Assembly: GCA_035297365.1 (NCBI GenBank)
Contig: DATGZA010000056.1
Span: forward strand, 1 to 42,934
From: Nitrososphaeraceae archaeon
Lineage (GTDB): Archaea > Thermoproteota > Nitrososphaeria > Nitrososphaerales > Nitrososphaeraceae
DNA length: 42,934 bases
Reading direction: 5' to 3'
In this document: positions 30,184-33,518 of the stretch, piece after piece
Numbering within the stretch: the stretch's first letter is position 1
How the letters are laid out: each line of letters opens with the position of its first letter
Notes under the pieces: model-generated
What the model was told of the DNA's origin: nothing
Database searches by the model: none
Seen by the model: only the letters and a program-made list of their open reading frames with translations
Translations under genes and position numbers: made by a program

Positions 30184-30925
30184 TATCAAACTGGCAATTG
30201 ATTCATTTATTCATCATAATTAATTGATCGTTTTGATATTTTAAAGAATATTTGGGTACACAATAAGAAGTTTACTGCCAGTATTTTTGACCATATTCTT
30301 TATTATTCAACATTACCGGGTTTATATACTGCAAAATTTCATTTTCATAGGCTAAAAGACATAATGATTTAATATTAGGGTTATTTTCACTTAAAAGCCA
30401 ATCGTCCTTTGGAGGTTCTAGTAATTTCGGTTGCTCTGTATATATAACATACCAAGTTTGTGAATATAACTTTTATTTTGTCAACACAGATTGAAATTTT
30501 AACGATTTGGAAATAGGCAGAGAAGAAGGTCATAAATGTGTAAAACTGCGTCAGTGTGTTCGATGCTATGTGCAATAATATTACCCATTTTACGTTCTAT
30601 GTTAGGTTTGATTGTCTCAATTATCCTTTTGCTTCTCAATTTTTTTTAACCGGATTTTCTTGATTTAAAATATCATTCAAGATCATAGTCAAATACAAAT
30701 TCATCGTTGGTTATATCGACACACAGATTTTATAAAATCATTAGATAAGAATTTTTTGTATGTTTGAGTAAATTCTTGTTTATAATATTCTTTCAAATAA
30801 ATAACATATTTGAAAATGATTAGACCTTAACCCATTTATTTAAACACTTATATAATCCATAAAAGAATTTTGAAATTCAAGGAATAATCCTGAAGGATAA
30901 TTATTATAATAAAGAAAAATTAAAG

Positions 30926-30984
30926 GGTTCTGTTAACTTGTTAGGCGATAAGCCATAGTTTTTGACCAGTTAACCTTCGGGTGA
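30926..30984 (+). repeat. Left bipartite inverted end: 23-bp TIR + 20-bp spacer + 16-bp inner IR (GTTAACCTTCGGGTGA)
   Basis: Both blocks are exact reverse complements of blocks at the right end. Confidence 0.93.
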
Positions 30985-31794
30985 TGATTTTTTATTTTCA
31001 TAGGATTTGTCATTATTTAAAATAACTTCTGCATCTTTAATTGTAGGTTCTGTTTGTTTAACAGTATTTAATAGGTTCATAGATTTTATCTTTTTAAGCA
31101 AAATTTCAAGAACACTTTTTGCTAATTCTAATGTATCTTCATCCGTGATTTTGATACTACCTATACCTTTGGCGGATAAAACACCAAATTCATTTTCCAA
31201 TCGTTCATCGGGATAGTGAATAGACGAATCAATAGTAAATTGTTGATTTTGCATAATCTGTTTATTATTATATTCGTCAGTGTTATAGCTTTTCTGTTTA
31301 TTTTGTTCAAGTATCTCATCAGGAATTATTGATATATCTTCCAGATACCATTCTCTTATTTGCTTTTCTTTCTTTTCTATTTCTAACGGTTCAGCATTTG
31401 TTATATTACGTAATTGAGAAAATAAACTATCAGGTATGTTCTTTTGTATCCTATCATAGAGTTTTTTCCACAATTGTACATTGAATATTGCCTGTTTTTG
31501 GATACTTGATTCCTTGACTTTTTCTGGGAATAGAATATCTTTTCCAAGTTCTTCAATTTTATATTTGCCTCTTGAGATTGAACTAATAAGACCGTAAATC
31601 TCCATACTATATATTTTTCTTGGTAAGCCACTGGAGGTAGGTGATGCATATTTCAAATATCTCGCAACATCTTGCATAGTAAAGTCACGATTTCCAATAT
31701 TATTTTCATAAATTTCTCTCAAATCAGGAATTAGATTTAGAAACCTTATCATTGGTATTTCATAAGTTCCTATTTGAAATCTCTCTGAAGGCAT
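30970..31794 (-). CDS. IS passenger protein, probable N-terminal winged-helix domain
   Basis: DVARYLKY..PTSSG.....SMEIYGLI.....GKYKIEELG resembles a wHTH; stop codon lies inside the inner inverted repeat. Confidence 0.75.
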   Translation of the reverse strand: MPSERFQIGTYEIPMIRFLNLIPDLREIYENNIGNRDFTMQDVARYLKYASPTSSGLPRKIYSMEIYGLISSISRGKYKIEELGKDILFPEKVKESSIQKQAIFNVQLWKKLYDRIQKNIPDSLFSQLRNITNAEPLEIEKKEKQIREWYLEDISIIPDEILEQNKQKSYNTDEYNNKQIMQNQQFTIDSSIHYPDERLENEFGVLSAKGIGSIKITDEDTLELAKSVLEILLKKIKSMNLLNTVKQTEPTIKDAEVILNNDKSYENKKSSPEG

Positions 31795-31862
31795 TTACTT
31801 AGAATACGTAATTCATCCTAATAAGTTTACTTATTTTGATAGAAATTATAAGTATAATATGC

Positions 31863-31919
31863 ATACGTGAAAAAGTTTAAAAAACGTAAAAGTTAAATAA
31901 TATACGTTATATAAGTTAT
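31863..31919. promoter_or_regulatory. Divergent promoter region with three ~20-bp spaced ACGT...AAGTT repeats and a TATA-like box (TTATATAA, 31907-31914)
   Basis: ACGT at 31865, 31884 and 31904, each followed by AAGTT. Confidence 0.4.
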
Positions 31920-31926
31920 CTGAGAT

Positions 31927-32004
31927 AGAAACTCCTCGGCATAGTGCTCCGTTGGGCTGTCAACTCGGACGGATGCTGTGTAAGTCAGCACGAGGAGACC
32001 TTCT
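31927..32004 (+). ncRNA. Putative structured RNA (four-way junction, tRNA-like geometry) upstream of the transposase
   Basis: CTCCTCG/CGAGGAG closing stem, GCA/TGC, TCCGT/ACGGA and TGCTG/CAGCA arms; 39 of 66 bases are G+C, within AT-rich flanks. Confidence 0.6.
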
Positions 32005-32083
32005 GTTTTGCAACAAAAGATGAAAGTCAAATGATATATACGTAAACCCAACTATTAAGTTTTCTCTTAGAGAAAGCAAAGGA

Positions 32084-33160
32084 TTGGCAATTGCCAATTC
32101 CAATAGTCATATATCAAGAATTGATGACCATTCTTACAAGGTAAAATCTCAATCATCCAATAATCAATATGATGTATTTTCTACAGAATCAGGATGGTCT
32201 TGTTCTTGCCTTGATAATACATACAGAAAGGTAACCTGTAAGCATATTTTTGCCGTTCAGTTCAGTCTTAATCTTAGAAAGGAAGTTCAATCTACCTTAA
32301 CAATTGAACAATTAGACACTTTATCATGTATTTTCTGCCATTCAGAACATTTTGTCAAAGATGCAGTTAGACATAACAAATATGGAGATATTCAACGATA
32401 TCTTTGTAAAGATTGTGGTAAAAGATTTTCATTTAATGTTGGATTTGAAAATATGCGGGCAACTCCACAGATAATTACATCTGCTATGCAATTATACTTT
32501 AGTGGAGAATCATTCAGGAACGCAAGAAATTTCTTAAAGTTACAAGGAGTTAACGTTAGTCATGTTGCAGTTTACAAGTGGATTAAGAAATATGTTAATC
32601 TGATGGACAAGTATCTTGAAAAAATTACTCCAAATGTTTCTACTGTCTGGAGAACTGATGAACTATACCTGAAAGTAAAAGGTAATAAAAAATACCTTTT
32701 TGCTTTAATGGATGATGAAACAAGGTTCTGGATTTCTCAACAGGTAGCAGATAAAAAGAATACAAGTGATGTTAGACCATTATTCAAAGAAGGTAAAGAA
32801 ATAGCACAGAAAAGACCTAGTGTATTGATTAGTGACGGAGCACCTAATTTTCATGACGCCTACAAGAAAGAATATTTCACATTGAAAAATCCGAGAACAA
32901 AACACATCAGATATATCAGGTTACAAGGAGATAACAATAACAATAAACAAGAACGTTTCAACGGTGAAATTCGTGACCGTGAAAAGACAATGAGAGGCTT
33001 GAAAACAGTTCACACATCCATATTGAAAGGGTATCAGATTTATCACAACTATATTAGAGAACATGAAGGCTTGAACGGACAAACACCTGCCGAAAAATGT
33101 GCAATTACTATTGAAGGAAATGATAAATGGAGAACGATAATTGAAAATGCAAAAAAATAA
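32084..33160 (+). CDS. IS6-family DDE transposase with N-terminal SWIM finger and zinc ribbon
   Basis: CSC...CKH (SWIM), CIFC...CKDC, HTH, WRTDELYLKV, LISDG and NNKQERFNG; frame is open from 32024, so the true start is uncertain. Confidence 0.92.
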   Translation: MAIANSNSHISRIDDHSYKVKSQSSNNQYDVFSTESGWSCSCLDNTYRKVTCKHIFAVQFSLNLRKEVQSTLTIEQLDTLSCIFCHSEHFVKDAVRHNKYGDIQRYLCKDCGKRFSFNVGFENMRATPQIITSAMQLYFSGESFRNARNFLKLQGVNVSHVAVYKWIKKYVNLMDKYLEKITPNVSTVWRTDELYLKVKGNKKYLFALMDDETRFWISQQVADKKNTSDVRPLFKEGKEIAQKRPSVLISDGAPNFHDAYKKEYFTLKNPRTKHIRYIRLQGDNNNNKQERFNGEIRDREKTMRGLKTVHTSILKGYQIYHNYIREHEGLNGQTPAEKCAITIEGNDKWRTIIENAKK

Positions 33161-33229
33161 CACTACAAATCATGGTCTACGACATTATCGAATTTTCGAT
33201 TCTAACGTAGTAGGAGGTGAAAGAAAGTA

Positions 33230-33292
33230 ATGAGTTGTTCATGCAGAAGAGTAAGAGTTCGACGACATTTCAGGCGAGTTTGTAGACGTTAA
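33230..33292 (+). CDS. 20-aa Arg/Cys-rich peptide MSCSCRRVRVRRHFRRVCRR
   Basis: Perfect SD GGAGGTGA (33213-33220) 9 nt upstream of the ATG; strongly biased composition (9 Arg, 3 Cys). Confidence 0.55.
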   Translation: MSCSCRRVRVRRHFRRVCRR

Positions 33293-33308
33293 ACCGACCT
33301 CCTAACTA

Positions 33309-33347
33309 ATTGAAGCCCTAAACTTCAATAACCCCACTTATTTTTTT
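33309..33347 (+). terminator. Hairpin (ATTGAAG/CTTCAAT) followed by a T7 tract; likely end of the peptide transcript
   Basis: Inverted repeat at about 33309-33329 and TTTTTTT at 33341-33347. Confidence 0.4.
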
Positions 33348-33412
33348 AGATATATTAACTATATTCTCAGCTAAATTTGTTTCGTTAAGGTATAATATTT
33401 TATATTCAATTG

Positions 33413-33471
33413 TCACCCGAAGGTTAACACCTTGAAGATTTTCACTTGTCGCCTAACAAGTTAACAGAACC
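33413..33471 (-). repeat. Right bipartite inverted end of the IS6 element
   Basis: TCACCCGAAGGTTAAC (33413-33428) + 20 bp + TCGCCTAACAAGTTAACAGAACC (33449-33471). Confidence 0.93.
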
Positions 33472-33518
33472 AATTAAAGATTTCTTTTTATTATGCCCCA
33501 GATAAATAGCAATTTTAG

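Follow-up and report, generated by a model that had tools for sequence, protein, structure and literature searches.

Introduction

Processing signals that resemble tRNAs are known from organelles, a few viruses, eukaryotic long non-coding RNAs (lncRNAs) and one haloarchaeal rRNA operon. The mascRNA/MEN-beta RNAs are released by RNase P and RNase Z. Guide RNAs are encoded by transposons in the flanks of transposase genes, as with the bridge RNA of IS110 and the omega RNA of IS200/605. Work on plant mitochondria describes t-elements that direct RNase Z/P cleavage at mRNA ends; in Arabidopsis mitochondria, tRNA-like structures upstream of cox1, rps4 and ccmFN1 lie where mRNAs have 5' ends that are ascribed to RNase Z (PMC1920247). 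For Haloferax volcanii, a published account describes a t-element upstream of 5S rRNA that is cut by tRNase Z, and the use of t-elements in vivo as a processing signal that releases CRISPR RNA (PMC4326828). Here we describe a 67-nt tRNA-like element upstream of a transposase gene, within an IS6-family transposon, in a 42,934-nt stretch of a Nitrososphaeraceae archaeon (GenBank assembly GCA_035297365.1, contig DATGZA010000056.1, positions 1 to 42,934 of the forward strand; hereafter the window). By its sequence the element looks clearly tRNA-derived, with the acceptor and T-arm kept and the D-arm shrunk to a 3-bp hairpin. We set at about even the chance that it works as a t-element, in which tRNase Z and RNase P would cut at a tRNA-like signal.

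By analogy, t-elements are the nearest described kind of RNA and mascRNA is the architecturally closest match. What t-elements and the window element have in common is a non-canonical cloverleaf with intact acceptor and T-arm and, in the window by prediction, a place directly before another RNA. For the described examples it is tRNase Z that makes the 5' end of the downstream RNA, in one case in an archaeon, whereas here cleavage is only predicted. The window element also departs from these examples in being cargo of a mobile element in front of a transposase mRNA, and in its 3-bp D hairpin and missing variable region. The mascRNA/MEN-beta RNAs (RF01684) share almost the whole architecture (7-bp acceptor, 3-bp mini D hairpin, anticodon-like arm, absence of a variable loop, canonical T-arm), but are eukaryotic and lie at lncRNA 3' ends. 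The RF01684 (mascRNA-menRNA) model gave 28.3 bits (E 0.024) on the related copy at locus L033, below the gathering score of 42.5, and no match on the window at E<=10; the likeness is best read as analogy, not membership.

Two further comparisons concern mobile elements. Canonical tRNAs carried by mobile elements, such as a pair at locus L082, share with the window element a tRNA ancestry and the left-hand passenger region of the same transposon family; the window element differs in failing tRNA models and in lacking a D-arm and a conserved anticodon. Transposon guide RNAs are likewise structured non-coding RNAs encoded beside the transposase gene within the element. The carrier here is a DDE transposon of the IS6 type, not DEDD or TnpB, and the fold is tRNA-like. 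A guide RNA was rejected, as by eye the loops have no complementarity to the inverted repeats or target duplications at the transposon ends.

A literature search in which subscription journals were largely not covered found no paper describing a prokaryotic insertion sequence whose transposase leader contains a tRNA-like element. What may be new here is a t-element with a Nitrososphaeria host, an IS6-type transposon as carrier and a transposase mRNA as partner. If the element is cleaved, a mobile element would be using host tRNA-maturation enzymes to shape its transposase mRNA, a new way to set transposase dosage. Ammonia-oxidising archaea would also have supplied a natural t-element that is compact (67 nt, with the D-arm reduced) and could serve multiplexed RNA expression.

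The tRNA-like element and its fold

The element and its parts are as follows.

31932-31998, + strand: tRNA-like element, 67 nt, four-way junction, unique descriptor match, 79.1 bits with covariance model R1 (seed copy)
31932-38 (CTCCTCG) and 31991-97 (CGAGGAG), + strand: acceptor-like stem, 7 bp, with ACC after the 3' strand
31939-47, + strand: mini D hairpin GCA-UAG-UGC, 3 bp with a 3-nt loop
31948-73, + strand: anticodon-like arm, 26 nt, base formed by TCCGT (31948-52) and ACGGA (31969-73)
31974-90, + strand: T-like arm TGCTG-TGTAAGT-CAGCA, 5 bp with a 7-nt loop (UGUAAGU), abutting the acceptor 3' strand
31998, + strand: discriminator A

Read along the + strand, 31932-31998 is composed of CTCCTCG, GCATAGTGC, TCCGTTGGGCTGTCAACTCGGACGGA, TGCTG-TGTAAGT-CAGCA, CGAGGAG and A. 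The four helices abut with zero unpaired bases at the junction, and the variable region has 0 nt. The anticodon-like arm has 6 bp at its base, 2-3 bp in its upper part and a loop of 7-8 nt, which becomes the 7-nt loop CUGUCAA provided that G31967 is bulged. The GC content is 0.58 over the element and 0.18-0.36 in the adjacent 80-nt windows. The element is single-copy in its own genome. An earlier reading of the DNA from its letters alone (the sequence-only reading) had listed these helices with their coordinates, the ACC, the absence of unpaired junction bases and the GC-rich character in AT-rich surroundings, and all of these are present in the sequence as it described them.

A descriptor of four abutting helices was run on both strands of the 42.9-kb window, and its sole match was 31932-31997 (+). 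The same descriptor had 0 matches in 100 windows shuffled in 200-nt blocks. A chance origin of the fold is excluded for practical purposes. By itself the RNAfold evidence is only mildly persuasive. The minimum free energy (MFE) of the + strand was -29.4 (z = -2.37), and z was -1.28 for the - strand. For the window copy the MFE structure was an extended hairpin (-28.6), with the four-way junction at -27.2, that is 1.4 kcal/mol above it. The four-way junction was the MFE structure in L102 and L129, and lay 0.8 kcal/mol above the MFE in L105.

ARAGORN called 0 tRNA genes across the window, and none in L033 or L124. With the Rfam models the window had no match at the gathering score; relaxing the limit to E<=10 still gave none that overlaps the element, and L033 had no match to the tRNA model at E<=1. 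A canonical tRNA (RF00005/ARAGORN) was rejected, given the 3-bp D hairpin, the 0-nt variable region, the irregular 26-28-nt arm and the failure of the tRNA models; the sequence-only reading had likewise called the element tRNA-like yet no canonical tRNA. Weak Rfam matches to a CRISPR repeat and to AniS (E>0.05) both lay outside the element and were discarded. A C/D-box small RNA was also rejected, as no C or D boxes were seen by eye in or beside the element.

A functional decoding tRNA carried as cargo would have the 7-bp acceptor, the T-arm and the discriminator seen here, as well as the 7-nt CU-NNN-AA loop found in 4/5 transposon copies. Yet the element lacks both D-arm and variable region, its anticodon stem is bulged and 8-10 bp long, the anticodon varies, position 1-72 is C-G in most copies, and neither ARAGORN nor the Rfam tRNA model detects it in the window, L033, L102/L124 or L105. 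We regard this explanation as extremely improbable. A conserved anticodon identity was rejected as well, the five transposon copies reading CUGUCAA, CUCGUAA, CUCGUAA, CUGGUAA and CCCGCUA.

Conservation and covariation of the element

The carriers of the element are the intact transposon copies in the window, L033, L102/L124 and L105, and a decayed copy at L088. The metagenomic L124 matches L102 exactly in the element and in the compared flanks. L101 is identical to L033 over the element and was used for no claim. All copies have a 7-bp acceptor, an 8-9-nt mini D hairpin, an irregular 26-28-nt arm, no variable region and a 5+7+5 T-arm, at a total length of about 65-69 nt. The mini D hairpin reads GCAUGGUGC in L102 and L105, GCAUAGUGC in the window and L088, and GUCGGAAC in L033. 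The discriminator is A in four copies and U in L033.

In a MAFFT alignment of the four intact copies 96.6% of the pair cells were paired, and 14/22 pairs changed on both sides. None of 500 shuffles (0/500) reached any of five measures, and sliding the 3' partners by 1-3 columns left 36-51% paired. Adding L088, L126 and L129 in an alignment fitted to the covariance model gave 95.3% paired cells and 17/22 pairs with double-sided change. L126 and L129 came from a pattern in which the T-loop, its closing pair and the sequence of the mini D hairpin were fixed; they are look-alikes in structure, and their homology to the transposon copies is not established. The figures for paired cells are flattered because the structure was derived from these same sequences. 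The double-sided changes, found in 5/7 pairs of the acceptor stem and 4/5 of the T stem, are unaffected by this derivation.

The 7+5-bp acceptor/T stack was 100% paired in the four intact copies and 9/12 of its pairs covary; double-sided compensatory changes occur in all five helices. Compared with the window, the transposases of the carriers have 52-59% identity and the neighbouring passenger protein ORF274 has 29-36%. Since the pairing was kept while both proteins diverged, it is under selection. G-U outnumbers A-C 8:1 in the pairs of the element, an excess that favours an RNA from the + strand; on the same ground a DNA cruciform was rejected.

Five sequences have UUCGAAU as their T-loop; the window has UGUAAGU and L088 has UGCAACU. 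Position 1 (U) and position 5 (A) are invariant in 7/7. The D-loop UGG (CGG in L033) occurs with UUCGAAU in 5/5 cases, and the D-loop UAG with a T-loop of the UG.. type in 2/2 (window and L088). An elbow contact of the G18-U55 type, if maintained, would be expected to leave this pattern. As the window and L088 may share ancestry, the co-change counts as at most one event. Conservation is lowest in the upper part of the long arm, where the 7-nt loop has the form CU-NNN-AA in 4/5 copies around the triplets GUC, CGU, CGU and GGU.

These data also bear on the explanation that the element is a decaying, captured tRNA gene with no present function. Its evident tRNA derivation, the many Thr-like anticodon loops (CGU, GGU), the real tRNAs in a relative (L082), the rarity of the element and the degenerate T-loop of the window copy are all in keeping with a relic. 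Decay would not, however, be expected to leave compensatory double-sided changes in all five helices at protein identities of 29-59%, nor the same reduced architecture in every copy. Pairing is lost only in L088, a transposon that has itself decayed, and there in the acceptor stem. We consider a relic improbable.

Model R1 was searched against 100 sources and found only the window, L033, L102 and L105 (72-87 bits, all seeds) and L088 (36.4 bits); the best ordinary tRNA scored 25.1 bits. In 151 genomes of the order, outside G000, R1 had only 22-25-bit matches of ~75 nt, which are probably ordinary tRNAs. A pattern scan of 401 Nitrosopumilaceae genomes, with a gap one base short for L102, returned the L105 genome together with G428 and G440, and the latter two were rejected as unsupported by R1. 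A metagenome pattern scan gave 20 loci, among which L129 is identical to L138; 16 loci with R1 scores <=13.4 bits were discounted, being taken for chance matches or pieces of ordinary tRNAs. A sequence-level search in 200 genomes of the family had a 31-nt AT-rich flank as its sole match, and blastn-short and nhmmer with the element had no matches in the transposase loci (best 80 of 409).

One of the look-alikes, L126:1916-2062 (metagenome; reduced D-arm; 43.3 bits with R1), lies 3 nt after a tRNA called by ARAGORN. It is ~300 nt upstream of an unrelated DDE_Tnp_1 transposase and beside an Orc1/Cdc6 gene. L126 may be a case in which such an RNA and a transposase came together a second time, independently, or it may be a coincidence.

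Position of the element in the transposase leader

The features that flank the element on the transposase strand are listed here.

31893-31904 and 31907-31914, + strand: AT-rich TATA-like tracts TTAAATAATATA and TTATATAA, candidate archaeal promoter, 18-39 nt upstream of the element
32084-33160, + strand: SWIM zinc-finger and DDE transposase, 358 aa from TTG (Pfam/NCBIfam)

The end of the element and the start of the transposase are 28-31 nt apart in L033, L102 and L105. This interval holds a conserved CTAC..AGGAGTGT motif and a GGAG Shine-Dalgarno-like motif, with no T-tract and no TATA-like tract. Because nothing between them resembles a T-tract or a promoter, the transposase mRNA of these three loci should start at or before the element. 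The sequence-only reading had also placed the element just downstream of a TATA-like box, and in L102 and L105 similar tracts lie roughly 20-35 nt before the first acceptor base. We infer that transcription runs from the upstream TATA-like tract and would start at the element or within a few nt of it, and that element and transposase are transcribed together.

Predicted processing by tRNase Z and RNase P

As a t-element, the RNA would stand at the very 5' end of a transcript that runs into the SWIM/DDE transposase gene. The acceptor/T-arm stack would be read by the host enzymes that mature tRNAs: tRNase Z would cleave 3' of the discriminator, and any leader would be removed on the 5' side by RNase P. 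Cleavage would yield a short RNA resembling a tRNA and a transposase mRNA whose leader is defined, ~30 nt long and 5'-monophosphorylated. Transposase output would then be tied to processing, which may raise it or, more probably, limit it.

The best-conserved parts of the element are the 12-bp acceptor/T-arm stack, the T-loop and the discriminator base, with no encoded CCA. An acceptor/T stack, T-loop and discriminator without CCA are what RNase P, tRNase Z and the CCA-adding enzyme recognise, and a CCA after the discriminator would block tRNase Z. In all copies a CCA directly after the discriminator is absent. Decoding would need a D-arm, a regular 5-bp anticodon stem and a fixed anticodon, and each of these is either missing from the element or variable. 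The host genome encodes an RNase P RNA (165.7 bits) and an RNase Z (312.4 bits, above cut-off). Two further observations are in keeping with processing: acceptor pairing has been lost in the decayed L088, and L033 weakly matches RF01684, the model of an RNA that RNase P and RNase Z release. The sequence-only reading had offered a cis-regulatory leader, an RNase P/Z processing signal or a transposase-bound non-coding RNA; the processing signal appears to fit best, and the transposase-bound RNA found no support.

The element may instead act in cis as a structured 5' leader that stays unprocessed, whether as an exonuclease-resistant cap, a modulator of translation or a platform for a protein (the transposase or ORF274). 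It lies directly upstream of the ribosome-binding site, and it always accompanies ORF274, which is winged-helix-like. As a modulator, the 5' acceptor strand (CUCCU/CUUCU/CUCUU), by eye complementary to AGGAG, could pair with the downstream AGGAG. What is most conserved, however, is the acceptor/T-arm stack and the T-loop, the part that tRNA enzymes read, and the L033 acceptor GCUCGUG has little anti-Shine-Dalgarno character. As to a protein platform, ORF274 resembles a DNA-binding winged helix, its homologues outside the transposon (L089-L098) have no adjacent RNA, and in L033 ORF274 is split while the element is intact. We consider an unprocessed leader unlikely.

Several points weigh against processing as a t-element. 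Hoelzle et al. (Biochimie, 2012) reportedly saw most predicted tRNA-like elements of Haloferax remain uncleaved in vitro. The sample is small (four intact transposon copies and one decayed), and the element is rare. R1 places it in 2/151 genomes of the window's family and in 3/151 of the sister family, where one of the three matches has 29 bits at an uninspected locus. The T-loop of the window copy, UGUAAGU, departs from the UUCGAAU of its relatives. Among the closest transposase loci (best 80 of 409) 79/80 are without the element, three of these having <150 nt of upstream sequence. L007 (71%) and L008 (65%) are nearer to the window transposase than any carrier and have no element. By this distribution the element is dispensable for the transposase family. 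Covariation upstream of homologous transposases, whose absence would have refuted the sequence-only reading by its own test, was found (14/22 pairs double-sided). The element is present at only 1/80 of the closest loci (best 80 of 409).

The carriers moreover need at least three gains or losses on a quick IQ-TREE phylogeny of the transposase, from which L036 (internal stop) was dropped, since they are split over two tree groups alongside non-carriers. The window transposase groups with L007, a non-carrier (support 94), and L033, L102 and L105 fall in a separate 8-member clade (98) with five non-carrier copies.

The last point of this kind concerns the window itself. Here the spacer between the element and TTG 32084 is 86 nt and contains TGTTTTG, a T4 tract, and the TATA-like ATATATA (~32033-39), so co-transcription with the transposase is less certain than in the relatives. 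The placement in a transposase leader, as the sequence-only reading had it, holds for L033, L102 and L105 (28-31 nt, no T-tract) and is less certain for the window. The window element may be a separate transcription unit.

An independent small-RNA gene would make a stable tRNA mimic acting in trans, which could titrate or sense a tRNA-binding factor, serve as a nuclease decoy or regulate transposition. The element has its own TATA-like tract at the right distance and, in the window, the T4 tract after it and a second TATA-like tract before the transposase. The elbow-type co-variation of D-loop and T-loop suggests that a full L-shape is kept, and the related transposon L082 carries true tRNA genes as cargo. 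Against this, there is no terminator between element and transposase in L033, L102 and L105, the anticodon-like loop is not conserved, and no target or partner is known. Such a gene is distinctly unlikely in our view.

A variant that keeps the cleavage step is that tRNase Z releases the 67-nt L-shaped RNA, possibly CCA-tailed, and that this transposon-borne mimic has a regulatory role of its own in trans. The released mimic may have ORF274 or the SWIM-finger transposase as a binding partner, or it may compete for the enzymes that handle tRNAs. We hold this to be very unlikely. If true, transposition would be gated by the tRNA-processing or charging state of the host, an RNA sensing layer undescribed for DDE insertion sequences.

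The host transposon

The element is enclosed by a transposon that the sequence-only reading had missed.

30926-33471: transposon, IS6 family, 2,546 bp, with terminal inverted repeats and an 8-bp target duplication
30926-30984, + strand: left terminal inverted repeat, starts GGTTCTGTTAACTTGTTAGGCGA, preceded by the target duplication AATTAAAG at 30918-30925
33413-33471, - strand: right terminal inverted repeat, followed by the target duplication AATTAAAG at 33472-33479
30970-31794, - strand: ORF274, divergent 274-aa passenger open reading frame (ORF), no family, winged-helix-like
33211-33292, + strand: GGAGGTG Shine-Dalgarno-like motif and 20-codon Arg/Cys-rich mini-ORF, 3' of the transposase, within the stem TAGGAGGT/ACCTCCTA

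The inverted repeats are ~59 nt long, with the terminal 23 nt identical at both ends and a variable middle part. From left to right the transposon carries ORF274 (-), the tRNA-like element, the transposase and the small Arg/Cys-rich ORF. According to a review of the IS6 family, its members measure 700-890 bp and have one ORF, a passenger gene is present in only one of them, the ends begin with GG, the target repeats are 8 bp long, and zinc-finger extensions occur mainly in Clostridia (PMC7986276). The window transposon fits in its DDE type, inverted repeats and 8-bp duplication, but not in size or in having a single ORF; it is an atypical, passenger-carrying member of the family. More broadly, the archaeal group shares with IS6/IS26 the IS240/IS6-type DDE transposase, inverted repeats beginning with GG and 8-bp target duplications, and differs in its 2.2-4.5 kb size, its SWIM finger, its variable passenger modules and the tRNA-like RNA in one module.

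Pfam assigned DDE_Tnp_IS240 (PF13610) to the transposase at 55.9 bits (cut-off 27) and SWIM at 18.7. The best NCBIfam match was transpos_IS6 (NF033587) at 110.2 bits, under the equivalog cut-off of 125. Homology to relatives reaches N-terminally to ~32045, ~13 codons 5' of TTG 32084. The frame is open back to TGA 32021-23 with no ATG, GTG or TTG up to TTG 32084, and the window transposase may have a non-canonical start codon or a shortened N-terminus.

The mini-ORF region 33211-33292 is a component of the transposon and not of the RNA element. A ribosome-binding motif GGAGGTGAAAGAAA followed by a small Cys-rich ORF occurs both in the window (20 aa, MSCSCRRVRVRRHFRRVCRR) and at L033:3615-3746 (43 aa). 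In the divergent intergenic region the RNA element is flanked by ATACGTAA-type motifs at 31804-31831 and 32038-32065, and also 31863, 31884 and 31902, which include a 28-nt direct repeat of 75% identity. Palindromes of the type TCTACGTAGA occupy the equivalent place in L013, L014, L042 and L066, which have other passenger genes. Both kinds of motif may be operator sites.

ORF274 and its loci

ORF274 had no Pfam or NCBIfam family, and a sequence profile search of the PDB gave nothing below E 0.5. Its AlphaFold2 model had a mean predicted local distance difference test score of 73, with >90 for residues 1-165. Foldseek returned weak matches only (E>=0.02), to winged helix-turn-helix proteins of the DtxR/MarR/IclR type. 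In the model the N-terminal ~165 aa look like a winged helix of the DNA-binding type, and in the Pfam, NCBIfam, PDB profile and Foldseek searches there was no hint of an RNA-binding or tRNA enzyme fold.

Homologues of ORF274 were found in 24/401 genomes of the class, G000 included, and a k-mer homologue search gave 3 relatives (P0002-P0004). A homologue adjoins a SWIM/DDE transposase in L088, L102 and L105, and also in L101. In the loci that pair ORF274 with the transposase, the tRNA-like element lies between the two genes, ~125-160 nt upstream of the divergent ORF274 and on the transposase strand. L106 ends at a contig edge after what seem to be the first 18 nt of an L033-type element. Homologues of ORF274 without a transposase neighbour (L089-L098, L103, L104) have no such RNA adjacent. 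The element thus travels with one left-hand module that also holds ORF274, and this module of ORF274 plus RNA has been repeatedly exchanged or lost.

L124 has perfect 59-nt inverted repeats 3,038 bp apart and no target duplication. The decayed L088 has a stop in ORF274, an internally deleted transposase that matches residues 260-358 only, flanking 8-mers that differ and three broken acceptor pairs.

A (C)ATGTTTATAAAT block, at 31820-31834 (-) in the window, is located ~25-40 nt upstream of the ORF274 start and is conserved in all five loci, where it probably serves as the TATA box for an ORF274 mRNA with a short leader or none.

Transposase relatives and their cargo

In a collection of species-representative genomes 409 relatives of the transposase were confirmed, and the loci of the best 80 (57-71% identity; Nitrososphaeria and Bathyarchaeia metagenome-assembled genomes, or MAGs) were analysed. 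In many of these 80 loci GGTTCTGTTAAC ends are 2.2-4.5 kb apart, and perfect 8-bp target duplications were found at L007, L008, L033 and L082. The common ends and duplications define a family of passenger-carrying IS6-like transposons. This SWIM-finger branch of IS6 has not been described before and is widespread in Nitrososphaeria and Bathyarchaeia.

What lies between the left end and the transposase differs in modular fashion from copy to copy: a small zinc-ribbon-like ORF in some, and an AbrB-like ORF with TCTACGTAGA palindromes in others. Among the best 80 of 409, L033 (a Nitrosotalea MAG) is the only locus with a tRNA-like element in the equivalent place, and also the only one that shares ORF274 (33% identity by tblastn).

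The Bathyarchaeia transposon at L082 (1117-4341, target duplication CCAAGATC) carries two genuine tRNA genes as cargo at L082:1913-2103, with Rfam tRNA scores of 45.5 and 54.1 bits. One of them has a long variable arm and the anticodon UUA, with which it would decode the stop codon UAA. The other has the anticodon GCU and a 22-nt D-loop insertion, and is without a long variable arm.

In L052, L053, L058 and L064 the transposon copies lie 660-850 bp from a tRNA-Thr(GGU) gene, and related genomes may here share one ancestral insertion. Loop triplets of the Thr type (GGU, CGU) are found in the tRNA-like elements of L088, L102 and L105.

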